From Alphaproteobacteria bacterium (GTDB lineage: Bacteria > Pseudomonadota > Alphaproteobacteria > SHVV01), in NCBI GenBank assembly GCA_965261735.1, contig OZ253470.1, positions 3,712,001 through 3,776,000 on the forward strand: DNA of 64,000 bases, read 5' to 3'. The position numbers and the translations under genes are program-made. Below, piece by piece: positions 41,897 through 59,190 of this stretch. The number at the start of each line of letters is the position of its first letter. Positions within the stretch are counted from its first letter, which is position 1. The notes below the pieces were generated by a model, which was not told the origin of the DNA, ran no database searches, and worked only from the letters and a program-made list of their open reading frames with translations.

Positions 41897-43051
41897 CTAG
41901 TGGATTGATTCCAACGTTTGGAACCCTCTGTTTCGTGCGGCGATGATATGATCGGGGTCGGCTTTCCAGATGAAGGGTTTTGGGTTTGCGTCATTGTATT
42001 CGCGGACAAATCGGTTGATGGCGTCCTGAAGGTCGACGACGGATTGGAAGACGCCGTATTTGAGCCTGCGCCGCGTTAGTTTGGCGAAGAAGCCCTCGAC
42101 GGCATTGAGCCACGAGCACGAGGTTGGCGTGAAGTGGAAGGTCCAGCGTGGATGGCGGGCGAGCCAGGCGCGGACCTTGTCCTTCTTGTGCGCGGCGTAG
42201 TTGTCGAGGATGACGTGGACGGCCTTGTCCGTCGGCACCTCGCGCTCGATGCGGTTGAGGAAGCGGATGAACTCCTGATGGCGGTGGCGCTGCATGTTCT
42301 GTGCGATGACCGTACCGTCCAGCACGTTGAGCGCGGCGAACAGCGTCGTCGTGCCATGCCGTTTGTAATCATAGGTCATCGTACCGGCGCGGCCCTTCTT
42401 CATCGGCAAGCCGGGTTGGGTGCGGTCGAGCGCCTGGATCTGTGATTTCTCATCAACCGACAGCACCACGGCATGGGCCGGCGGATCGACATACAAGCCG
42501 ACGATATCTGTGAGCTTCTCGGCGAAGGCGGGATCATTGGAGAGCTTGAAGTGCCGCCAGCGGTGCGGGCTGAGGCCATGGGCCTTCCAGATCGCTTGGA
42601 CCGTCGACGCCGCGACGCCAGCAACCTTCGCCATCGCGCGCAGCGTCCAGTGGGTCGCCTCGTGCGGCGGCGCTTGCTGGGTCAGGCGGACGATCTCGGC
42701 GACGCGCTTCGGCGGGATCGGCGCTTTGCCAGGCGGACGGGACCTGTCGCGAAGCAAGCCGTTGACACCCTCGTGCATGAACCGCTCCTGCCAGCGCCAG
42801 ACACAGGTCTTGGACTTGCCGGTCTCGGCCATGATCGACGAGTTCCCGAGCCCCTCGTCGCTCTTCAGGATGATCCGCGCCCGCCAGACATGTTTCTGCG
42901 AGCTCTTCGGGTCCGCGACGATAGCTTGCAATCGCTGACGGTCGCCAGACGTGACAGTAAAATGGATGCCGGTGCGCATAGCACAGACTCACATGACACC
43001 GCACAATACGGAATCTCAAATCGGACTCTTTCGTTCCGATCAATCCACTAG
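41897..43051 (-). mobile_element. IS630-family element with 360-aa transposase (41897-42979)
   Basis: CTAG at both ends; TIR tagtggattgat; SVDEKSQIQ, ILDNY, TPTSCSWLNAVE. Confidence 0.93.
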
Positions 43052-44042
43052 AATGGGCGCAACCCGGATATAGGGGAGCGCGCCATGGATGTTCTCGACC
43101 GCGCCGATCTCCCATTCCCGCATTCGCTACCCGAGTTCCAGCGACTTTTCCCCGATGATGCGGCCTGCGCCGCCTACCTGGAGAAAGCCCGCTGGGGAGA
43201 CGGCTTTGCCTGCCCGCACTGCGGCACGGCGGGAGAGCCGTTCCACTTTGAAAACCGCCCTGGCGTCCTGCGCTGCCGCAAGTGCCGCCAGAACACCGGG
43301 CTGACGGTGGGAACAGTGATGGAGCGTAGCCACACTCCGCTGAACGTCTGGTTCTGGGCCGCTTATCTGGTCGCCAGTCAGACGCCCGGCATGTCCGCCG
43401 TGCAGTTTCAGCGGCAACTTGGTCTTTCGCGCTACGAGACGGCCTTTCAAATTCTCCACAAGCTCCGCTCGGGCATGGTGCGGCCCAACCAAGACAGGAT
43501 CGGTGGACAGCCCAAGAACCATGTTGAGGTGGACGAAACCTGGGTTGGCGGGCGAACGCGTGGGGAAGGCCGTGGTGTTCACCACAAGGTTCCCGTCTCC
43601 TGTGCCATCGACGTCGTGCTCGACCGTAGCGCCGAGTCGCTCTGTGGGTTCGTCGAGAGCACCGTCGCGCCGGGATCGCTGATCGTTACTGACGATTGGA
43701 GCGGCTATGCTGGCCTCGGTAAGCGCGGCTATGAGCACTTCGCTGTTGCCGAGTGTGGTGATCCAGAGGTTGCCGAGCAATACCTGCCGATCATCCATCT
43801 GGTTTTCGCCAACCTGAAGACGTGGCTGATCGGTATCCACCACGGCGTTAGCCACCAGCACCTACAAGCCTACCTCAACGAGTTCACCTTCCGCTTCAAC
43901 AGGCGGTTCTACCCGTTCAACGCCTTCCGCTCATTGCTCGGCATCGCGGGCGACACCTCTGCTCCAACCTATGCCGAGCTTTACTCGGGAGAGTGGCGGC
44001 ACCCTACATGTAGCGGTCATGGGCGTTAACCGGATAGGCAAG
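43048..44042 (+). mobile_element. IS1595-family copy 9 (left TIR missing; 25-aa in-frame deletion; ORF 43085-44029)
   Basis: Begins at the element's internal ctagaatggg; right TIR ends at 44042. Confidence 0.9.
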
Positions 44043-45558
44043 GGTTGATCCAGACGGCTTCGGGAAGCGGGGCGGGTTTCGGGGTGCCGTGGACGAAGCG
44101 TTCGGGGTGAAGGGCCCAGGCGGCTTGCAGGGTACGTCCGCGCTGAGCCAGCACATCCGGTGCCCAGTGATGATGGACATCATCGGGGGTGAGCATCGCG
44201 ATCCCGGCATGGCGGTGTTCGGTGTTGTACCAGGGGAAGAACGACCGGCAGAAGGCGATGGCGGCGGTAATGTCTTCGAAGCGCCCAGGGAAGCCGGGGT
44301 GATACTTCAGGGTCTTGAACTGCGCTTCGGAGAACGGGTTGTCATCGCTGACCTGGGGGCGGCTCAGAGAGCGGGTGACCCCGAGGTCGGCGAGGAGTTG
44401 GGCGGTACACTTGCTGGTCATCGGCGCGCCGCGGTCCGAATGCAGGGTGAGCACCTGGGGCTCGATGCCTTGCTTGAGACAGGTTTCCTCGATCAGCGTC
44501 GCGGCGAGCGCGGCGTTCTCCCGATCGGCAACCATCCAGCCCACGACGCAGCGGCTGAAGATGTCGAGCAAGACATAGAGGTAGAAGGACGTCCAGCGTT
44601 TGGGCCCCCGGAGCCGGGTGATATCCCAGGACCAGGTCTGGTTGGGGCCCGTGGCCACCAGCTCGGGCTTGGTGTAGCAGGGATGACTGCGCTGATTGCG
44701 CCGCTCTCGCACCGGCTAGTTCGCGGCCAGGATCCGGTATATCGTGCGCTCGGCGCACAGATACTGGCCTTCATCGAGCAGCGTCGCGACGACCTCGGCC
44801 GGTGACCGGTCGACGAAGCGCGGGCTGGCGAGCACGTCGAGGACGTGCGCGCGTTCGGACGCACACAGGGCCCGGGCGGGCGTAGGACGGGGCTGCTGAT
44901 GCCCGGGAGCGGGCCTCTGACGACGGTAGAAGGAAGCCCGTGGCACCCCCAGCGCTCGGCACGCCGGCGCCACGCCGACCTGCGATGCGAGCGGCTGGAC
45001 GGCCATCAGCAGTCCTTCCCGTGTTCGAGGCTGAATCCCAGCAGCCCGGCAACTTTTCCCTGGACGTCCAGGATCGTATGGGCGGTGTGCAGCTCCTTCT
45101 CCAGCCGAGCCACTTTCGCCTCGAGCTCGTGCACCTTCGCGCTGAGGGGGTTGCGCTCGGCGGGCTTCCGACCGCGTTTGCTCGGGGTCAGGCCTTGAAG
45201 CGACCCTTCACGCCGCGCCCTGCGCCATTCCGTCAGATGGGAGCTGTACAGCCCCTCGCGGCGAAGCAGCCGGCCCACCTCGCCGGGCTGCGTGCAGCTC
45301 TCTGCCTCCTCCAGAATCCGCAGTCGATACTGCGCGGTGAACTTGCGCCTCTTCGGCTTGGCCACGACCTCCGGGTCCGGCGTTGGCCGCGCGTGGCTGG
45401 CACCGGCCCCGGGGGCCTCGTCGCGACGCTCCTCGACCCCCAGGGCCGGAGCGTCCATCTCTTGCAATGTCATCGATTCTCTCTCTGCGGTCATTGGTAT
45501 TCACCTCCACCGCCCTACAGTAATTCCAAGGGGGGCCGGTGTCTCAGTGAGGTTGGCA
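44043..45558 (-). mobile_element. IS3-like element remnant (orfA 45006-45494; orfB with nonsense codon at 44716-44718; right end lost)
   Basis: RRKFTAQYRLRILEE, LLRREGLYSS; WSWDIT, LHSDRG, DNPFSEAQF; TG end at 45558. Confidence 0.82.
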
Positions 45559-45677
45559 GAGAGGGCTTCTCGCTCGCCAGGGTTCCTCCTCAAACGGAAA
45601 CAAGCCTGTTATGATGTGGTGACAACGCTGTGCACAGAAACAGCGATCAAGAACGGCACATCAGTGGGGCAACAATC

Positions 45678-45923
45678 ATGGGGCAATTAGCAGTGACTTG
45701 GATGAAGACGACCGTCGTCGCAATCATTGTGACCGGCGCGCTGGCCACCTCCGGGTGTTCGAGCGAAGGTTTCACATGGATCAACGGTGATCGATACCGG
45801 TTCCTCGGTATCGAGTCCCGTTGCGCACCCGATGGCTCCCTTGTCCTGTGGCAGCGCGCTAACGATGCCGGTGACTTCGGCGCGGTCCAGGCCTCTTCGG
45901 CAAACTGCACCGGCGGGCCATAA
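45678..45923 (+). CDS. Small putative lipoprotein
   Basis: Hydrophobic stretch followed by lipobox-like ATSGC, plus two further Cys. Confidence 0.45.
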   Translation: MGQLAVTWMKTTVVAIIVTGALATSGCSSEGFTWINGDRYRFLGIESRCAPDGSLVLWQRANDAGDFGAVQASSANCTGGP

Positions 45924-46244
45924 GGGCTAAAGCCGGCCCGATGGACACGTCCTTCGGCAATTGGCGCTCCGCGTAGCGCGGCGCCCGCCGGGGAAGTCCC
46001 GGGCGAGGATCGCGGGGGGACAGCATCGGAGAGCCTCGCGGCGAACTACCGGCGACCCATCCCAGCCAGCTGAAAGTGATGGCGCGAAGGATCTGCCGGG
46101 TGGCGGTACTGGGGGCGACCCCGATCCGGAACACGTCCCGGCCGAGGAATTCGCCTTAGATTCTGGAAATTCAGGATGTCATTGACCCGGAACCACGACG
46201 GATCGTCCGCCGTTTCGTTCTTTGGCATCATTTTGAACAGAAAC

Positions 46245-47879
46245 GGGTGCGAGTCTCGCATGGCAGTGATGTCTGCGGCTTGGTTCGTTGAGTTCAGGCA
46301 GCGATTGCCATGGCTGCTGCACGTGGACTGATGTTGTCGTTGGCCGGTGTGTCGGTTGCGCTGATCAGGGCCTTCCATGCGCGCTCGAAGCGGCCGGATT
46401 TGATCAGGGCGCGGAAGGTCAGAACAGCCTGTCCGCCGACGATCCGCCAGCGCATGCCGGAGCGCTTCATGCGCTGTGTCACCAGGGATCTTGTTGGCAG
46501 CCTCGACCACGCCTGAGCCGATGGCGATGCCCTCTTCCTTCAGGGCGTGGTAGCGCATGCGATGGCGATGCTTGCGGAAGAAGGCGAGTTCCCGCTCGGT
46601 CTCGGCCCGGTCCGGCGCAGCGGCGGCATCGCGAAGGTGGCGCAGCGCCCGGATCACCTTGGCGACGCCACGGGGATCGTGACGGAGGATCTCGCGGTAC
46701 TTCTCGAACCAGCCGGGCGCCACGGCATGGTCGGACGCGGTTTGCAGATGTTCGCAAGCATGCCAGAAGTCGATCACCTCGGTTTCGGGCGACAGGGTCT
46801 CCAGGAAGGTCCAGTTGTCGGCGGCGCCATCGGCGATAGCGACGATCCCGATCTCGGGGCGTGCTCGCCTGATGTGTGCGACTTCGCTTGCAAGCTGCGC
46901 CTTCAGCGTGAGCTTGCCGCTCTCCGGCATGGGGCCGAGATAGAGGGTCTTCAGGCGCTTGCCCTCGGCGTCGTGGAAGGAGACCGTGCCGCAGGCGGCC
47001 TCGCGCCAGGAGGCCTTGGCGCGACCGTCCTCGCCGGGTCTCAGCGGCACCATGACGCCGTCGAGGGAGACCGAGGCGGTGGTCGCGTCCTGCGGTATGC
47101 CCTCGGCCTCACGGATGCTGCCCAGCGTCTCCGGGCCGAGGCTCTCCCAGCATTCGTGCATGCTCAGGGTCAGGCGCTCACCGACGGCGTCATGGCGCCG
47201 GTCTTCGCAAAGAACGCCGCCGCTTCCCGGGCCGTGCAGCGACCCATCATCAGCAGACCGAGCTCGGCCGCCGGCCGCGTCAGGTAATCGTCGACGAGGC
47301 CCAGGCTCTCGTCGACCGGCACCGGCGATGCCCCGCTCGCGCCGCTGCGGTAACGCGCTCGCCGGTAGGCGAGCGAGGTCATGATCGTCTTCGGCGTCAC
47401 CGCGACCCGGAACCAGCTCTGCCCGTCCCGCTCGATCCGGGAAGCGCCATCGTCCCGGTTCTCGATGACGGCGCCCATGACATCGCGAGCGAACTCGTTC
47501 GTGGCCTCACGCACCCGCAACTCGACCTCCTCGGGCACCTCGGGGCGCGGCTCGGAACGAAGCTCCTCGCGACACAGTGCGAGCACCCGGGCGGCCGCCT
47601 CGACGACCCGAGGAGGCAGGCCGGAAAGATCGATGGACGAAGGCGCCGGAGGCGGGGATACTGCCATGGGAATGCTCCCGATGTTGGGTTTCGAGACACG
47701 GCATCGTACCGCTTCTGGCGGTGCGGAGCGTTCCCACCTTCCCCTGCTCGACCCTGCCGTCGTGACAAAATCCTGCCTTGGAGCGGCCCATTGTCACGAA
47801 TAGCCGTTTTCGGCCGTTCGTCTCGACACAAAAACGCACTAAATCAATGACTTAGATTTTCCATACCAGACCCACACCC
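46245..47879 (-). mobile_element. ISKra4-like element, full length, frameshifted transposase
   Basis: Nearly identical to 34745-36380 with the same TIRs; no matching TSD. Confidence 0.88.
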
Positions 47880-48367
47880 TCCATAACTCCGGTCGCGCCA
47901 TGGTATGGGAACAGACCCCTGCGTTTTTCCCGTTCGCGAGATGAGAGAGGAATTCTCTTACTATCGAGTAGTTCGACCACTTCCCCGACACCGACGGCAG
48001 CCCATCCTTCCGGTTTCCCGTCCTCATCCAGCTTGTCGGGAAACAGATCCCAAATTTCCGGTGCGAGGTAAGGATCGCGGCCCTCGATCTTGGCGCGGGT
48101 GGGTCCGAAATCCACGAACCAGTCCTTGAACAGCGCCCGCGCCATCGCCTCCAGCGTCTCGTTCATGCGCCGGTTCAGCTCGATCTTGTCGTCCAGCGTG
48201 CCGAGGATGTGAGCGATGGCACGTTGTTCGTTGACATCATCGGGGAACCAAACAGGAGCCTGATGCAAATGATTCCAGTTTAGCCCAGGCACCGCTGCTT
48301 TGTCTGAAAAGGGCAGAAAATCAATGCCTTTCAAGAAATAGCTGATAAACCGTGGATCATTATTTTT
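47880..48367 (-). pseudogene. hsdS: Type I restriction-modification specificity subunit, internal fragment
   Basis: AVPGLN, EQRAIAHILGTLDDKIELNRRMNETLEAMARALFKDWFVDF, PEGW. Truncated by ISs on both sides. Confidence 0.9.
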
Positions 48368-48484
48368 GGGAATTGTATACAATTCTAGCCAATATCTCGA
48401 CATATCATTGATTTCATTACACAAATAAGCGCTTGAACCTTCTGGCTCGTTTTCCCTATATTATTAGCCATAGGGAGATTACAC

Positions 48485-50533
48485 ATGGCCAAACGCGACA
48501 AGATTGAAATCATGAGCGCCTGGGATTTCATGGCGCGATTTCCTACTGACAAGGATGCGCGAGGCCATATCGAGCGGATGCGCTGGGGCAATGAACCTTA
48601 CTGCCCTCACTGCGGAAGCGTTCGGATCAGTCATATCACAAACGAGAAACCGCAACCTTATCGCTGCAAGGATTGCCGCAAGCACTTCTCGGTCACGACA
48701 GGGACGGTGTTCCAGTCCGCCAAACTCTCACCACGCAAGTGCCTCTATGCGATCTATCTCATGGTCATTGCCAAGAAGTCCATTTCAAGCTGCCAGATGG
48801 CGCGGGAATTGGGCTGCACGCAAAAGACAGCGTGGTATCTCGCCCAGCGCATTCGTGAGACATGGCTCAACAAGTCCAGCATTGGCGACCCGATGGCTGG
48901 CGAGATTGAAATCGATGAAACCTATATAGGCGGGCTGGAGCGCAACAAGCACGCATCGAAAAAGTTGAAGGCCGGACGTGGCCCGGTCGGAAAGCAGCCG
49001 GTTATCGGGCTGCGGGAACGCGGATCGGGCCAAGTTAGGGCGCACCCAATTACCGGAACCGATGCGGCGCATCTACAAGGCGCAGTGCGTTCAGAGGTGG
49101 TGCCGGGATCAACTATCCTTGCCTATCCGGGTTACACCCACACCCACTAGGGCTAGAATGGGCGCAACCCGGATATAGGGGAGCGCGCCATGGATGTTCT
49201 CGACCGCGCCGATCTCCCATTCCCGCATTCGCTACCCGAGTTCCAGCGACTTTTCCCCGATGATGCGGCCTGCGCCGCCTACCTGGAGAAAGCCCGCTGG
49301 GGAGACGGCTTTGCCTGCCCGCACTGCGGCACGGCGGGAGAGCCGTTCCACTTTGAAAACCGCCCTGGCGTCCTGCGCTGCCGCAAGTGCCGCCAGAACA
49401 CCGGGCTGACGGTGGGAACAGTGATGGAGCGTAGCCACACTCCGCTGAACGTCTGGTTCTGGGCCGCTTATCTGGTCGCCAGTCAGACGCCCGGCATGTC
49501 CGCCGTGCAGTTTCAGCGGCAACTTGGTCTTTCGCGCTACGAGACGGCCTTTCAAATTCTCCACAAGCTCCGCTCGGGCATGGTGCGGCCCAACCAAGAC
49601 AGGATCGGTGGACAGCCCAAGAACCATGTTGAGGTGGACGAAACCTGGGTTGGCGGGCGAACGCGTGGGGAAGGCCGTGGTGTTCACCACAAGGTTCCCG
49701 TCTCCTGTGCCATCGAGGTGCGTCATCGAAAGCCGGGCACCAAGCTCGACAACCGGAAAGACGGACGCTATGCCGGACGCGTTCGGCTCGCCGTCGTGCT
49801 CGACCGTAGCGCCGAGTCGCTCTGTGGGTTCGTCGAGAGCACCGTCGCGCCGCGATCGCTGATCGTTACTGACGATTGGAGCGGCTATGCTGGCCTCGGT
49901 AAGCGCGGCTATGAGCACTTCGCTGTTGCCGAGTGTGGTGATCCAGAGGTTGCCGAGCAATACCTGCCGATCATCCATCTGGTTTTCGCCAACCTGAAGA
50001 CGTGGCTGATCGGTATCCACCACGGCGTTAGCCACCAGCACCTACAAGCCTACCTCAACGAGTTCACCTTCCGCTTCAACAGGCGGTTCTACCCGTTCAG
50101 CGCCTTCCGCTCATTGCTCGGCATCGCGGGCGACACCTCTGCTCCAACCTATGCCGAGCTTTACTCGGGAGAGTGGTGGCACCCTACATGTAGCGGTCAT
50201 GGGCGTTAACCGGATAGGCAAGCAACTATCTACACAGACGGTCATCGCGCCTATCGCGGTATGGGCGAGTACATTCATGAAGCGGTCGAGCATTCGGTCG
50301 GAGAGTATGTCCGCGATCAAGCCCACACCAACGGGATCGAATCCTTCTGGGCTTTGTTGAAGCGCGGATATATTGGAACCTTCCACCATTTCTCCGAGAA
50401 GCATATGGGTCGCTATGTCGATGAGTTCGCAACCCGCCATAACAGGCGGAAATGGGATACGATGGCCCATATAGACCAGAGCCTCCGCAACGCGGGCGGA
50501 GTCCTTGGCTACAAACGCCTCACCGCGAACTAG
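48485..50533 (+). pseudogene. Second type of IS1595 transposase (311 aa when repaired), split by copy 10
   Basis: CPHCG...CKDC, IEIDETYIGG, STI|YTD, HTNGIESFW, RYVDEF. Confidence 0.92.
49118..50222 (+). mobile_element. IS1595-family copy 10, complete with intact transposase (49190-50209)
   Basis: TSD caactatc at 49110-49117 and 50223-50230. Confidence 0.97.
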
Positions 50534-50542
50534 AGCCAGCCT

Positions 50543-51298
50543 ATGCCGCGCAAAGCCCAGCAGATGATTGAGCCCATCGACACAACGATGGATACCCTGA
50601 CCGCGACCGTGTTTTCCGGCCAAAGAACCGTGCAAGCACCGCCGCTAGCTTTGCCTGATGTTCTGAAACCGAACGTACGGCTGAAAATGGACGGGTTGGC
50701 GTTTCTGGACCTGTTGCCCGAAGCGTCGGTCCCGGTCGCTTTCCTCGACCCGCAATACCGCGGGGTTCTTGAAAAGCTGGCCTACGGGAACGAAGGCATG
50801 GGTCGGGGCAAGCGCCGTTGTGCACTTGAACAGATGCATGAAGACACAATCGGCCAATTCGTGCGGGGCATTCATCGGGCGCTGATCCCTTCCGGTCACC
50901 TGTTTCTATGGGTCGACAAGTTTCACCTCTGCCAAGGTGTCCACCCATGGTTGGAAGGAACCCTCCTTGACATCGTTGACCTGCTGACTTGGGACAAGGG
51001 CACGTTTGGCATGGGATACCGAACACGGCGGCGGGCCGAATATTGCGTGATCCTGCAAAAGCCGCCGCGCAAGGCGAAGGGCGTCTGGAAAATCCACAAC
51101 ATCCCGGACGTGCACAAAGAAGCCGCGCCGAAAACCGGGCACCCGCACGCGAAGCCTGTGGACCTGCAAGGCGAGTTGATGGCCGCCGTGAGCCATGAGG
51201 GCGATTTCGTCATAGACCCGGCCGCAGGATCGTTCTCGGTCCTGCAAGCGGCCAAGAACCGCCGACGCACCTTTCTCGGGTGCGACCTGAACGGCTAG
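50543..51298 (+). CDS. Beta-class N4/N6 DNA methyltransferase, intact
   Basis: Catalytic motif variant FLDPQY precedes HPHAKP and SAM-binding VIDPAAGS; ends FLGCDL. Confidence 0.9.
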   Translation: MPRKAQQMIEPIDTTMDTLTATVFSGQRTVQAPPLALPDVLKPNVRLKMDGLAFLDLLPEASVPVAFLDPQYRGVLEKLAYGNEGMGRGKRRCALEQMHEDTIGQFVRGIHRALIPSGHLFLWVDKFHLCQGVHPWLEGTLLDIVDLLTWDKGTFGMGYRTRRRAEYCVILQKPPRKAKGVWKIHNIPDVHKEAAPKTGHPHAKPVDLQGELMAAVSHEGDFVIDPAAGSFSVLQAAKNRRRTFLGCDLNG

Positions 51299-51886
51299 CG
51301 GCATGGCCCGCCTTCGGGACGCCAAGCCCAAGAACACGTCTGGTTCATACGAGCGCATTTTTGGCAATCCCGAGCTGGGCGCACTGGCCAGCAAGATTCA
51401 GTCTGCCGTGATTACGTCCGGCTCGGAACTCGAAGCGATGATCGTGGCTGCGGTCCCGAATATCCCAGACCTAGATCCTTTCCTGGAGCAGGAGATCATG
51501 CCGGAAGGCGTGTTCCTGGCCACCAAGCGCCAGATCAAGAAATCGGGTACCTTGGATTTTGCCGGGTCCGAACCTGACTTCATGGTGTTCAAGCGGCGGA
51601 AGAAGATACCTTGCCTATCCGGTTTACACCCACACCCACTAGGGCTAGAATGGGCGCAACCCGGATATAGGGGAGCGCGCCATGGATGTTCTCGACCGCG
51701 CCGATCTCCCATTCCCGCATTCGCTACCCGAGTTCCAGCGACTTTTCCCCGATGATGCGGCCTGTGTTGGTAGCGACCGTAAATTTCCCATTTGTAACGA
51801 CCCAAAATTTCTCACTTTGGGCTTGTCGCTGAAGGCGTCCCGGGCCGCTCTGTTGGCTTTGCCAACAGAGCGGGATCGGTGCGCGG

Positions 51887-52909
51887 ATGTACAAATGGGA
51901 GACCAGGATGTTGTTGAAGCACTATCTGGACCGGGGTGTCTCGAAGGCGGAGCTGTCGAGGCGGTTCGGGGTGAACCGTCGGACGATCCACAATTGGGTC
52001 GATACCGGCCAACTGGACCGGGATCTGGCGGCCGGTGCGCGAGGGTATTCGCCCCGTCCGCCGGTGGCCCACAAGCTGGACCCCTACAAGGCGATCATCG
52101 ACGCCCGTCTTGAGGCGTTCCCGAAGCTGTCGGCGAAGCGGCTTTTCGATGAGGTCCGCGCTGCGGACTACCCGGGCTGCTACTCTCGCGTGAACGACTA
52201 CGTGCGGGCGACGCGACCGCGCGAACCGGTTGAATCGCTGGTCCGGTTCGAGACGCCGGCGGGGCGTCAGGGCCAGGTGGACTTCGGTACGTTCACGCTG
52301 CCCTGGGGCCGGCGCCATGCCCTGGTGATCGTCCTCGGCTTCACCCGGCTGCTGTGGCTGCACTTCTATACTCGGCAGACCATGCCGGTCCTGATGGAAG
52401 GTCTGGAGAGCGCCTTCGACCGGTTCGGCGGGGTTCCGGAGGAGCTGCTGTTCGACCAGATGCGCGCCGTGGTGCTGTCCGACGACCGCGGGGCCGGCGG
52501 CGGCCTGGTGCTGAACGAGGAGTTTCTGCGGTTCGCCGCGCACTGGGGGTTCATGCCGCGCTCGTGCCGACCCTATCGGGCCCAGACCAAGGGCAAAGTG
52601 GAGCGCCCGATCCGCTACATCCGCGAGAGCTTCTTCTACGGCCGCTCGTTTGCGAATGACAACGATCTCAACGAGCAGGCCGTGCGCTGGCTGGAGGGCA
52701 CAGCCAACGTCCGCCGGCATGCCACGACCGGGGAGCGTCCTGTCGACCGCTTCGAGCGCGACGAGCGAGCGGTGCTTCTCCCCTTGGCGAACCATCCCTA
52801 TCGACGTCTCGGCGTCCGGCATGCTCCGGAGCCCGCGCCGCGGCGACTGCCGGCAACCGTGAAGGTCGAGCAGCGACCGCTTAGTGTCTATGCGGAGGCG
52901 CTGCAATGA
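51887..52909 (+). CDS. istA: IS21 transposase IstA (short type)
   Basis: RFETPAGRQGQVDFG, LLFDQM, AQTKGKVER. Confidence 0.93.
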   Translation: MYKWETRMLLKHYLDRGVSKAELSRRFGVNRRTIHNWVDTGQLDRDLAAGARGYSPRPPVAHKLDPYKAIIDARLEAFPKLSAKRLFDEVRAADYPGCYSRVNDYVRATRPREPVESLVRFETPAGRQGQVDFGTFTLPWGRRHALVIVLGFTRLLWLHFYTRQTMPVLMEGLESAFDRFGGVPEELLFDQMRAVVLSDDRGAGGGLVLNEEFLRFAAHWGFMPRSCRPYRAQTKGKVERPIRYIRESFFYGRSFANDNDLNEQAVRWLEGTANVRRHATTGERPVDRFERDERAVLLPLANHPYRRLGVRHAPEPAPRRLPATVKVEQRPLSVYAEALQ

Positions 52910-53703
52910 ACGCTCCGGCGCCGGCCCGGCGCGACCGGCTGCGGGCAATGCTGGCGGACCTCAAGATGCCGGGCGCGCTGGAGGCCGTCGACGGCATCCT
53001 CTCGGACGCCGACGGCGGCACGATCTCGGCGGCCGAGGCCATCGAGCAGTTGCTGAACGCCCAGATCGTGCTGCGCAACAACCGCCGTCTCCAGACCGCC
53101 ATGCGCTCTTCGCGGCTGCCGGCTGTGAAGACGCTCGATCAGTTCGACTTCGCCTTCCAGCCCAGCATCAAGCGCGAGCAGATCGAGAGCTTGCACGAGC
53201 TCGGCTTCCTGGACCGCGGCGAGAACGTGATCCTGCTCGGCCCACCAGGCGTCGGGAAAACGCACTTGGCGATCAGCCTCGCGATCGCGGCGGCCGAGGC
53301 CGGCCGGCGCGTCTACTACGGCACGCTCGCGGCGCTGATCGAGTCCCTCACCGAGGCCAAGGCCGCCGGCAATCTGACCCGGCGGCTGCGCGTGCTCACC
53401 CATCCGGCCCTGCTGGTGGTCGACGAGATCGGCTACCTGCCGGTCAACCAGGACGGCGCCGTGCTCTTCTTCCAGCTCATCAACGCCCGGCACGAGAGGG
53501 CGTCGACTGTGCTGACGTCGAACAAGGGTTTCGAGGACTGGGGTGGCGTGCTCGGCGACGAGGTCATGGCGGCGGCTCTCATCGACCGCCTTGTGCACCA
53601 CTGCCACATCGTCAACATCCGGGGCAACAGCTACCGGATGAAGGAGCATCAGAACCTGCTGCAGTCCGGCTCGGATCGACGCAGGAAAAGAGCCGCCGCG
53701 TGA
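52906..53703 (+). CDS. istB: IS21 helper ATPase IstB
   Basis: GPPGVGKT, LVVDEIGY, IDRLVHH, GNSYR. Confidence 0.95.
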   Translation: MNAPAPARRDRLRAMLADLKMPGALEAVDGILSDADGGTISAAEAIEQLLNAQIVLRNNRRLQTAMRSSRLPAVKTLDQFDFAFQPSIKREQIESLHELGFLDRGENVILLGPPGVGKTHLAISLAIAAAEAGRRVYYGTLAALIESLTEAKAAGNLTRRLRVLTHPALLVVDEIGYLPVNQDGAVLFFQLINARHERASTVLTSNKGFEDWGGVLGDEVMAAALIDRLVHHCHIVNIRGNSYRMKEHQNLLQSGSDRRRKRAAA

Positions 53704-55316
53704 TCGCCGGCTCAAACGGAGACAGGAGCGGTGACACCCGCCCGCTGTGGATAACCGGGTTGTCGCCGCCAGACTCTTGGCGGTCGCTGCGCCAACCCGG
53801 TTACCTACAGCTCGACCAAGTCCGACACCCCAAACACCGCGTCTGGGGGTACGACCGAACGCTCAAAGTGAGAAATATTTCGATCGACAAAAGTGGGAAA
53901 TTTTCAGTCGCAATTGACAGCCTGCGCCGCCTACCTGGAGAAAGCCCGCTGGGGAGACGGCTTTGCCTGCCCGCACTGCGGCACGGCGGGAGAGCCGTTC
54001 CACTTTGAAAACCGCCCTGGCGTCCTGCGCTGCCGCAAGTGCCGCCAGAACACCGGGCTGACGGTGGGAACAGTGATGGAGCGTAGCCACACTCCGCTGA
54101 ACGTCTGGTTCTGGGCCGCTTATCTGGTCGCCAGTCAGACGCCCGGCATGTCCGCCGTGCAGTTTCAGCGGCAACTTGGTCTTTCGCGCTACGAGACGGC
54201 CTTTCAAATTCTCCACAAGCTCCGCTCGGGCATGGTGCGGCCCAACCAAGACAGGATCGGTGGACAGCCCAAGAACCATGTTGAGGTGGACGAAACCTGG
54301 GTTGGCGGGCGAACGCGTGGGGAAGGCCGTGGTGTTCACCACAAGGTTCCCGTCTCCTGTGCCATCGAGGTGCGTCATCGAAAGCCGGGCACCAAGCTCG
54401 ACAACCGGAAAGACGGACGCTATGCCGGACGCGTTCGGCTCGCCGTCGTGCTCGACCGTAGCGCCGAGTCGCTCTGTGGGTTCGTCGAGAGCACCGTCGC
54501 GCCGCGATCGCTGACCGTTACTGACGATTGGAGCGGCTATGCTGGCCTCGGTAAGCGCGGCTATGAGCACTTCGCTGTTGCCGAGCGTGGTGATCCAGAG
54601 GTTGCCGAGCAATACCTGCCGATCATCCATCTGGTTTTCGCCAACCTGAAGACGTGGCTGATCGGTATCCACCACGGCGTTAGCCACCAGCACCTACAAG
54701 CCTACCTCAACGAGTTCACCTTCCGCTTCAACAGGCGGTTCTACCCGTTCAACGCCTTCCGCTCATTGCTCGGCATCGCGGGCGACACCTCTGCTCCAAC
54801 CTATGCCGAGCTTTACTCGGGAGAGTGGCGGCACCCTACATGTAGCGGTCATGGGCGTTAACCGGATAGGCAAGGAAGATACAGGCCTGCCATATCGTCG
54901 AACTGAAAGACGGACATGTGTTCGACACCAAGAAGGCCGGGGCTGAGCGAACCGCTATGCATCGGTTTATTGAGCGGAATGCTCAGCACATTCAGTACCG
55001 GTTCGAATCGCATTTCGTCGCCTTCAATCAGGACGACAGAACCGCGATTTGGGAGGGGTTCAAGAAGAGGATCGCCTTGAGCGAAGCCATGACAGGTCGG
55101 CAATTCTGCCAGCTTCTTGAGATCGACTATGACGCCATTGTGCAGCCGCGGCTAGTCGATTGTGCCGACAACGTGGAGTTCTTTCTGTCAGAATTAACGA
55201 AGATCAAAGGCATCAAGCAGAGGCTGCTTGATCTGCTGAATGGCTAGGATTGTATATAATTCCCTTATGTTACCCAAAGATTATTTTCGGGCAGCGAATT
55301 CCGATGGGAGGCGACC

Positions 55317-57052: not shown

Positions 57053-57853
57053 CTAAGCCTCTCCCACTTGGTCCCATAGCTCATCTATTGGCAGCCTCGG
57101 AGTATCTTTGAGCAGCGCCACGTCCAAAGCTCTGCGTCTCCGATCATCGATAACGGCGCTATTGATGCAATGGTTTGCACGTCCTTTGAACTCCCTCAGC
57201 AATCGATTGATTTCGCTATCAATCTGGTGAAACGGGAGGCGGTTGTTGGTAAACGAAAACGCGTCTCCCCAACCGCGAATCAGTCGGTCCACGCGAACGA
57301 GCACTTGAGCAAATGCCTCTTCTGCTCGTCGTTCATTGTCGGCGGAGGCATACGCCGTGATTGCATGGCTTCCAGTGTTCAGAGTGTACCGAATATTTCT
57401 CAGAAAACTTTTCCTCGCCTTTTTCGATGGCATAACACTATTGGCTTGGATGGAGCATCCGAGAAAATCAAACCCATCGGAAACCTGACCAACCTTTGAC
57501 TTATCAGTGTTTTCGTCGGGATCATACGCTTTCATCCCGAGATCGCCGAGAATGGAGATAGCCGAGGAGAAGGCGGTTTGTACAGCGTTCTCCGATCGTC
57601 CAAGGATTACAAAATCATCAATGTACCGGACGGTCCTGATATTTCGGCTGTTCAGATTTCTATCGAAATCCTGCAAAACGACGTTCCCTGCAAATGCTGA
57701 AAGGGAGGACCCTTGAGGTACTCCGATGTCCTCAAGCGGGAACAAGTGAAGCCATTCCCTGATTTCGTCCGCATTTTCCAATTCTGTAGTCATGGCTAGC
57801 TCAAGAAGCGCCGCGAAGTCGTCATCACCGGTCTGGTCGCGCACAAAGTCGAT
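57053..57853 (-). pseudogene. Group II-like reverse transcriptase (YIDD type), 5' part lost at IS256 element B
   Basis: GVPQGSSLS, RYIDDFVIL, GFDFLG, thumb-like LIRGWGDAF. Confidence 0.88.
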
Positions 57854-59190
57854 GATCGTGTCCCGCGGAGTGGTGTAAGAGCGTTGCGCTCTACGCGGCT
57901 CCCGGCGGGTAGGGCCGGGACGTTCAGGCTGCCACGGTGGGCAGCGTGATGGGGACACCATCGCTCAGCGGAGCGATGGATTCCAGCGTCATGTATCTCC
58001 TTGAGACGGCCCACTCGTCGTTCTGCTCGAGAAGGATGGCGCCGACGAGCCGTGTGATGGCGGCTTCGTTGGGAAAGATACCGACGACGTTGGTGCGACG
58101 CTTGACCTCGGCATGGAGCCGTTCGATCGGGTTTGTGGAGTGCAATTTCTGGCGGTGCTCCCTGGGGAAGCTCATGTAGGCGAGGACGTCGTGCTCGGCT
58201 TCGTCCATGAGAACTGCCAGCTTGGGCACCTTGGGCCTGAGCTGGTCGGCGACCTGGCGCCACTGGACCTTCGCGCTGTCGGCGCCCTCCTGGGCGAAGG
58301 CGGAGACGACGCGCCGGCCCTGGCGGCCGGCATGGGCCAGCAGGTTGCGGGCGAAGTGCACGCGGCAGCGCTGCCATGTGGCGCCGAGGATCCGGGTCGC
58401 GGCGGCCTTCAGGCCCTTGTGGTCGTCGGAGATCACCAGCTTCACGCCGCGCAGCCCGCGCCGGGCCAGCGAGCGCAGGAACTCGGTCCAGAAGGTCTCG
58501 GCCTCCGACGCGCCGATCGCCACGCCCAGGACCTCGCGGCGGCCTTGGTCGTTGACGGCCACAGCCACGGTCACCGCGACCGAGACGATGCGTCCGGTCT
58601 GGCGCACCTTCACGTAGGTGGCGTCGAGCCACAGATAGGGCCAGTCGCCCTCCAGCGGTCGATCGAGGAAGCCGTTGACCTTATCGTCGATCTCGCCGCA
58701 CAGCCTGGAGACCTGGCTCTTGGAGGCGCCCGACATCCCCATCGCCTGAACCAGATCGTCGACCGAGCGGGTCGACACCCCCTGGATGTAGGCCTCCTGG
58801 ATCACCGCAGCCAGCGCCTTCTCGGCCATCCGCCGCGGCTCCAGGAAGCCCGGGAAGTAGCTTCCCTTCCTCAGCTTCGGGATCTTCAGCTCGACCGTGC
58901 CGGCCCGCGTCTCCCAGGACCGGTCGCGGTAGCCGTTGCGATGGGTGATACGATCCGCCGAGCGCTCGCCGTGCCCGGCGCCGGTCAGGCCCTCAACCTC
59001 CAGTGCCATCAGCCGCTCGGCCGTGAAGCCGATCATCTCGCGCAAAAGGTCGGCGTCAGAACTCTTTTCCAACAGTGCGCGCAGCGTCATCATGTCGTTG
59101 GCGGTCATCGTGGTTCTCCTCCGGTCGGGTGGACTCTGCAAGCCCAACCCTAAACCGGTACCGCGATGGCCTCCGCTGTGGGACACGACC
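57854..59190 (-). mobile_element. IS256-family element B, transposase 57924-59108
   Basis: TIR g(a/g)tcgtgtccc; [29 protein letters not shown]. Flanks do not match. Confidence 0.92.

Follow-up and report, generated by a model that had tools for sequence, protein, structure and literature searches.

The source cited for the concept of the transporter insertion sequence (tIS), an insertion sequence (IS) that carries passenger genes, is reportedly a 2009 work of Siguier, Gagnevin and Chandler. In the accessible part of one later text the concept is defined on the IS1595 family (PMC3129680), and in that of another, tISCpe8 and MTnSag1 are IS1595-type tISs with a lincomycin-resistance gene and mobilisation functions (PMC5704250). 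Units in which imperfect inverted repeats and an 8-bp target duplication flank restriction-modification (R-M) genes have likewise been described (Furuta, Abe and Kobayashi, 2010; PMC2853133, available part). One of them, from Neisseria gonorrhoeae, has 26-bp repeats and a third, degenerate transposase-like gene that matches COG3677 (‘transposase and inactivated derivative’), and the same portion of that source refers to the 2009 work just named for ISs with which R-M and solitary methylase genes are associated. Here we describe an element at positions 48368-55264 of a 64,000-nucleotide stretch from the genome of an Alphaproteobacteria bacterium (SHVV01; contig OZ253470.1, forward-strand positions 3,712,001 to 3,776,000), the whole of which we call the window. 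It is very probably a decayed 2.5-kb IS1595 tIS with a two-gene type II-like R-M cargo, as an earlier note made from the sequence of this DNA had proposed, and its ends, the target duplications of its relatives, the predicted fold of its nuclease and the linkage of its cargo genes all support this reading.

The outer element is bounded by 24-bp inverted repeats that match at 22 of 24 positions, and its genes are broken up by nested insertions, which were placed by exact string searches and end comparisons (Table 1). Two copies of an 1105-bp IS1595-family element, here called IS-A, have entered it, each with its own 8-bp duplication on both sides, and the second is itself split by a 2155-bp IS21-family element with a 5-bp duplication; once the IS21 element is taken out, the IS-A copies are identical to each other at all but 5 of their 1105 positions. 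Excision of both IS-A copies together with one duplication each yields exactly 2511 bp, in which three + strand frames of 311, 251 and 223 amino acids (aa) follow one another with spacers of 9 and 4 bases, and the stop codon of the third (55245-55247) falls inside the right repeat. This anatomy agrees with the earlier note, which had described the two repeats, the three frames restored in 2511 bp and the stop codon within the terminal repeat, and which had not spelled out the third insertion, that of IS21.

Judged from alignments, the joins of the split frames are natural. The joined 223-aa frame is identical at 222 of its 223 residues, all except residue 191, to an uninterrupted public protein (P0003) occurring on three public contigs, hence an uninterrupted and nearly identical form exists in public assemblies; two more full-length members of the 90% identity cluster of P0003 are 2 and 3 residues off the joined frame. 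Both the joined transposase and the joined third frame can be aligned with intact relatives end to end and without gaps, and the DDE_Tnp_IS1595 profile runs contiguously from the N-terminal into the C-terminal piece of the transposase. Together with the terminal inverted repeats, the Zn ribbon and the DDE_Tnp_IS1595 domain predicted for this protein place the element in the IS1595 family. Its G+C content is 55.9%, as against 65.7% for the genome.

The mobility of the entire unit is seen in its relatives. A scan with the intact methylase as query, covering one genome per species, gave 136 confirmed stretches, and 80 loci were kept; the nuclease gene lies directly downstream of the methylase in 47 of these, and a match to the IS1595 transposase directly upstream in 32. 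In the relatives of lineage 1 with both ends located, a perfect 8-bp duplication surrounds the whole unit in every case (5/5), and the right repeat comes directly after the third gene, again in five of five; the earlier note had allowed that related elements might end right after the transposase, which would have made the distal repeat a coincidence, and this is not how they end. Uninterrupted relatives were also found, with the same repeats and perfect duplications: the elements of loci L008, L009, L012 and L075 measure 2510-2516 bp. That of L010, with a truncated transposase, is 2213 bp long. The lineage-1 relatives share the consensus GGGAATTATATACNATTTTAGCCA in their 24-bp ends, and without exception the third gene's stop codon is part of the right end. 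Further duplications were perfect in L023 (the palindromic ATTCGAAT) and in L109 (same site as L009), matched at 7/8 in L013 and at 6/8 in L020 (again at the L009 site), and in L029 matched over 7 bp, an indel of 1 nt lying at the tip of the element. Thus the passenger genes inside the repeats move with the transposase, with duplications at different sites and in different genomes, as expected of a tIS. The element occurs in several alphaproteobacterial families; one copy lies in or next to an OLD-like AAA/TOPRIM gene (L012, 5453-6352), another in or next to a TIR-domain gene (L048, 2243-2926; the TIR matches are weak and below the Pfam cut-off), and others in ordinary genes such as those for an isomerase, an epimerase and a DnaJ-domain protein. 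A search of plasmid DNA with the cargo region gave only a weak 77-bp match, a search of phage proteins gave none, and a metagenome scan with the methylase gave 19 loci, the best 84% identical, among which there was no nearly identical uninterrupted DNA copy.

A second backbone was found in a metagenome-assembled genome of Ruegeria (L033-L050), which holds at least 18 copies of a 2748-bp variant, a number from which it follows that the unit moves as a whole. Both ends could be found for 16 of these copies, of which 8 have perfect duplications, 1 has a duplication matching at 7/8 and 7 have no match, and recombination between copies or assembly error may be responsible for the last. One copy of the variant splits a gene for a fatty-acid cis/trans isomerase exactly, between positions 398 and 399 of the Pfam profile. 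The variant (e.g. L033, 2929-5676) carries about 300 extra bases before its right end with an 81-aa frame of no known family, and its repeats have their first 13 bases in common with those of the window element. Its transposase is 46% identical to that of the window, but its methylase and third protein are 78 and 76% identical, as close to the cargo of the window as lineage-1 cargo is, and hence the cargo has probably been exchanged between two IS1595 backbones, as far as sequence comparison can tell.

The cargo begins with a gene whose predicted product is a separate DNA methyltransferase with motif IV and motif I, as in type II R-M systems. Besides matching the N6_N4_Mtase profile (Table 1), its residues 47-250 align to a solved N4-cytosine methyltransferase (8s9m), with DPQY falling on SPPY and DPAAGS on DPFAGS. 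The S-adenosylmethionine motif stands near the C terminus, after the catalytic motif, which is the order of the beta class. The second cargo gene encodes the 223-aa third protein, in which P91, D92, E109, L110 and K111 do not vary among the 25 members aligned. An AlphaFold2 model built on this 25-member alignment reached a mean predicted local distance difference test (pLDDT) of 90.8 and a predicted template modelling score (pTM) of 0.85, and in it D92 opens the second core strand and ELK closes the third. The Foldseek list for this model consists mostly of PD-(D/E)xK nucleases (Nt.BspD6I, EcoO109I, FokI, PspGI, HinP1I, cap-snatching endonucleases and the R2 endonuclease) at weak scores, the best E being 3.9e-4. 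With VIA-align the top match was the Upx nuclease domain (Z 8.3, root-mean-square deviation (rmsd) 3.1, 120 residues) and the best long match the type IIP enzyme EcoO109I (1wtd; Z 7.8, rmsd 5.6, 178 of 223 residues), followed by NucS, BsaWI, Cfr10I, Bse634I, PspGI, PfoI and AvaII. Furthermore, a language-model atlas places the third protein beside a cluster automatically named ‘Restriction endonuclease’ (score 0.98). Putting the weight on the consistency of these lists and on the invariant motif, and on no single score, we read the model with confidence as that of a PD-(D/E)xK nuclease, in line with the fold that the earlier note had assigned to the repaired frame; the cargo would then hold a separate endonuclease with a nuclease fold and a catalytic motif, as type II systems do. 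The EcoO109I-like fold and an atlas lead towards HpyAIV/HinfI (a cluster of the ‘HpyAIV family’, 0.92, with few shared features) were taken as leads only, and no recognition sequence was assigned from them. The family is sizeable, with 663 clusters at 90% and 606 at 50% identity; no family model for it exists in the libraries searched, and it would be worth characterising as a restriction enzyme.

The two cargo genes are closely linked. Their linkage was followed from the nuclease side in a sample of 401 genomes of the host's class, 11 of which gave a match to the third protein and in which full-length genes were few. The methylase lies directly upstream in 7 of 8 full-length nuclease genes, and the eighth, in the genome G048, is intact and stands beside a 28-residue methylase remnant. 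The same genome has a second, intact methylase homologue 66% identical and 1.9 Mb away, which may protect the genome in trans; the two sites in G048 are C1:3211887-3212640 (L090/L104) and C1:1298704-1299399 (L103). Thus in this small sample the nuclease is kept only with a methylase in the same genome. The same pair, in the same order and with overlapping genes, is present on five conjugative plasmids of Campylobacter beside repL and vapC, where the methylase is 53% identical and keeps DPQY, and the nuclease is 36% identical and keeps PD...ELK. Among the 80 loci mentioned above, 15 have the pair with no match to the transposase, 13 of them with a near-full nuclease match, and a remnant of the right repeat can be recognised in five such pairs (L015, L022, L025, L053 and L060), so that part of this class is decayed transposon.

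These data bear on the idea that the third protein is an accessory transposition nuclease, with the methylase as an unrelated passenger. TnsA, the Tn7 protein responsible for second-strand cleavage at the transposon ends, has a PD-(D/E)xK fold and would be the model for such a role, to which the fusion of the stop codon to the right repeat in all lineage-1 elements would also lend itself. However, the pair persists with no transposase match in the 15 loci just given and on the Campylobacter plasmids, it stands behind two transposases that are only 46% identical, IS-A has reached 97 copies as a member of the same family and with no such gene, and the nuclease is almost never found apart from the methylase. 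An accessory role is very improbable on this evidence, and we take the pair to be the R-M cargo of a tIS.

For such a tIS the following course of events can be proposed. The Zn-ribbon/DDE transposase would recognise the 24-bp terminal repeats and move the entire unit, producing an 8-bp duplication at A+T-rich targets, and the three genes would probably be read as one transcript from the left end. We infer that the methyltransferase protects host DNA by methylation at its recognition site and that the small PD-(D/E)xK nuclease cleaves DNA left unmodified at the site of the methylase, so that the cargo would act as a defence module and, upon its loss, as an addiction module. In the window copy, proliferating IS-A has entered the transposase gene and the nuclease gene, and IS21 entered the second IS-A copy thereafter.

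Several observations speak against this picture and have to be set beside it. The third protein has no significant sequence match in Pfam, NCBIfam or the PDB, whether fragments or full-length homologues are used, and no named restriction family is matched significantly by 25 close and 24 more distant members of its family. The structural scores are middling (Z below 8.5), and according to the tool's own note unrelated models often reach 7-8. For every member seen so far the enzyme activities are predictions from sequence and models. At 33 of the 80 loci the methylase occurs with no nuclease, which means that it also lives as an orphan. As to the insertion itself, the 8-mers flanking the window copy, TTATTTTT (48360-48367) and TTATGTTA (55265-55272), match at 6 of 8 positions, as the earlier note had recorded, and a search for the empty site with the right flank in the genomes of 20 relatives gave only a 52-bp match with an E of about 1e-4.

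The lack of any restriction-enzyme family that matches the nuclease by sequence is what one would expect if the pair were a real module of another kind than classical type II R-M, for example a non-specific or structure-acting nuclease or a toxin checked by methylation, and the fold neighbours do include NucS, Holliday junction resolvases and cyclic-nucleotide-activated nucleases. On the contrary, the best long structural match is a type IIP enzyme with many type II enzymes after it, and type II systems are also where one finds this size, this order of genes and so strict a tie to a small beta-class methylase, which makes a non-classical module decidedly unlikely and argues for the type II-like assignment. 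The weak flanking match, in a region full of IS debris, might in turn suggest that the 24-bp repeats are a coincidence or the ends of separate ISs, with the methylase and nuclease as resident genes caught between them. The left 24-mer has one other match in the 64-kb window, inverted and with 2 mismatches, and a second match by chance was obtained in 0 of 100 shuffles; moreover, the same repeats and the same three genes with perfect 8-bp duplications recur across many genomes and sites. Given the conserved ends and perfect duplications of the relatives, we reject this explanation as next to impossible, and the weak match of the window copy is not needed for the tIS reading. The two 8-mers are possibly a decayed target duplication. 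Directly adjoining the element on the left (window 47852-48367, - strand) is part of a gene for a type I R-M specificity subunit (Methylase_S, 1.5e-07), truncated at both ends, and on the right lies the region upstream of an exonuclease gene; with such flanks the insertion is no longer a simple splitting of a gene.

The window copy itself is dead, since both its transposase and its nuclease genes are interrupted and the methylase frame alone is intact. Of the self-mobile element described in the earlier note, mobility of the whole unit therefore holds for the relatives, but not for this copy at present. Survival of the methylase alone is the usual end state in the decay of R-M systems. In its own genome (5.03 Mb, one contig) there is no second full copy, and the left 750 bp alone are duplicated, as part of a segment of about 7.2 kb (window 43048-50222). 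A second version of this segment, nearly identical from end to end, lies at genome positions 3662263-3669437, at a distance of 93 kb. The segment opens with an IS-A remnant, closes with IS-A copy 1 and holds between them the type I specificity-gene fragment and the left 750 bp of the element. With IS-A sequence on both sides, it looks as if it had arisen by IS-A-mediated duplication or by composite transposition.

Full-length copies of IS-A number 97 in the genome, at identities of 97.4% or above, and there are many fragments besides; the window alone contains more than 10 pieces. Perfect 8-bp duplications surround 42 of the 87 copies with full coordinates, and the target is palindrome-like (GWWCGWWC). 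The IS21 element has 7 full-length copies. At about 130 IS-A insertions in 5.03 Mb, 0.065 hits would be expected in a 2.5-kb target, making the two found in the element unlikely on a genome-wide scale, whereas within this IS-dense window, with about 10 insertions in 64 kb, they are unremarkable. For this reason no selection for inactivating the nuclease is claimed. Other transposases in the neighbourhood are of the IS66, IS630-like, IS3-like and IS1595 types, and a reverse transcriptase is present as well; a 302-aa frame (window 57056-57961, - strand), some 1.8 kb beyond the right end of the element, has an RVT_1 domain (5.6e-10).

Table 1. Parts of the outer element, the insertions nested in it and its left flank, in window coordinates.
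Feature	Position	Strand	Support
Left flanking 8-mer TTATTTTT, paired with TTATGTTA at 55265-55272 (6/8)	48360..48367	.	
Left terminal inverted repeat (IRL) of the outer tIS	48368..48391	+	fits family consensus GGGAATTATATACNATTTTAGCCA
Promoter-like site TTGAAC-18-TATATT before the transposase start	48433..48462	+	weak consensus match; 2 sites found vs 1.0 expected
Outer transposase, N-terminal part (residues 1-211): Zn ribbon and first half of DDE domain	48485..49117	+	Zn_ribbon_IS1595 2.1e-12; DDE_Tnp_IS1595 2-80
IS-A copy 1, with 339-aa transposase at 49190-50209	49118..50222	+	CAACTATC duplication at 49110-49117 and 50223-50230
Outer transposase, C-terminal part (residues 212-311 and stop)	50231..50533	+	DDE_Tnp_IS1595 81-153
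Predicted beta-class N6/N4 DNA methyltransferase, 251 aa, intact; motif IV DPQY before motif I DPAAGSFS	50543..51298	+	N6_N4_Mtase 6.8e-12
Third gene (predicted restriction nuclease), N-terminal part: residues 1-102 and first base of codon 103; PD motif	51303..51609	+	
IS-A copy 2, interrupted by IS21	51610..54874	+	GAAGATAC duplication at 51602-51609 and 54875-54882
IS21-family element, 2155 bp; istA 51887-52909, istB 52906-53703	51765..53919	+	rve; IstB_IS21 9.7e-81; duplication GCCTG
Third gene, C-terminal part: rest of codon 103 to stop; ELK motif	54883..55247	+	
Right terminal inverted repeat (IRR), holding the third-gene stop codon	55241..55264	-	22/24 vs IRL

The orphan state of the methylase was looked at in a quick tree of 47 orphans, 21 pairs and 20 transposon-borne forms plus the window, from which 17 duplicate Ruegeria loci and 10 loci from other searches (pieces of the own genome, repeat or partial fetches) were left out. 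Orphan and paired methylases interleave in this tree, a pattern that fits repeated loss of the nuclease with the methylase retained, as far as a sequence tree can suggest it. An 11-member clade of orphan methylases from Paracoccaceae has a support of 100 (the L063-L081 group, e.g. L067, 4001-6004), and several of its members adjoin a convergent gene for a Ppx/GppA phosphatase. Other orphans stand beside an HpaB or a phosphotransferase gene. The Paracoccaceae orphans and others look like domesticated solitary methylases.

At 10 of 120 loci, amounting to about six separate cases, the cargo or element stands among fragments of another gene from the same methylase family (L009 (2684-5954), L020, L109, L075 (2422-5692), L017, L015, L011, L022, L027 and L114). 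L009, L020 and L109 share one site at about residues 85-94 of the interrupted methylase, and L075 is inserted at residues 171-173; both cases are clean insertions, in different codons and each with an 8-bp duplication. By blastx the outer fragments are ordinary family members, with identities to the nearest member of 80-89% in L075, about 80% in L009 and 64% in L017; three outer-methylase rows were entered in the tree (two of them joined rows with 4 stops each), and their placement was discarded. Chance seems an unlikely source of this pattern, which may reflect a target preference for A+T-rich, horizontally acquired DNA. Another explanation, which we consider unlikely, is that a resident orphan methylase works as a ‘vaccine’ against loss of the R-M system, and that copies destroying this gene would restore the dependence of the host and hence be retained. 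If true, a selfish transposon-borne R-M system would be knocking out the immunising gene of its host.

A literature search, to which REBASE and ISfinder lay outside, gave no paper on this particular element or enzyme pair. For annotation, the locus teaches that what appears as five gene fragments and three IS elements is one decayed mobile element, of which the methylase is the sole surviving gene. For its nuclease, the nearest known counterparts are EcoO109I and other PD-(D/E)xK type II enzymes; with EcoO109I the model has in common the core fold over most of the protein and a PD...(D/E)xK motif on core strands, and it differs from it in a sequence identity of only 12% and in having no match at the level of sequence. 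The pair itself has its counterpart on plasmids of Campylobacter coli and C. jejuni (e.g. NZ_CP027635.1), which resemble the cargo in the two protein families and their arrangement and differ in that no annotated IS1595 transposase is adjacent; the names ‘DNA methyltransferase’ and ‘restriction endonuclease’ in that record are labels of an annotation pipeline.

At the level of the whole element, tISCpe8 and MTnSag1, as the accessible part of their source has them, share with it an IS1595-type DDE transposase, terminal inverted repeats and passengers inside the repeats, and with its relatives a target duplication, whereas their cargo serves lincomycin resistance and mobilisation and the present one consists of a methylase and a nuclease. 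In the units described by Furuta, Abe and Kobayashi, within the portion of their paper available, R-M genes likewise lie inside imperfect inverted repeats, with an 8-bp duplication as in the relatives here, but the cargo is either a type IIG enzyme with a specificity (S) subunit or, in Xanthomonas, a type II pair whose unit has 65-bp repeats and lacks a transposase. In contrast to these, the intact relatives described here keep a full transposase, carry a different cargo family and reach at least 18 copies in one genome. Both kinds, the IS1595 tIS and the transposon-like R-M unit, are already in print, and the element is therefore another, well-documented instance and not a new kind: a clean and multiply replicated example of a complete R-M system spread by simple transposition, in 2.5 kb that hold a transposase, a methylase and a nuclease only.

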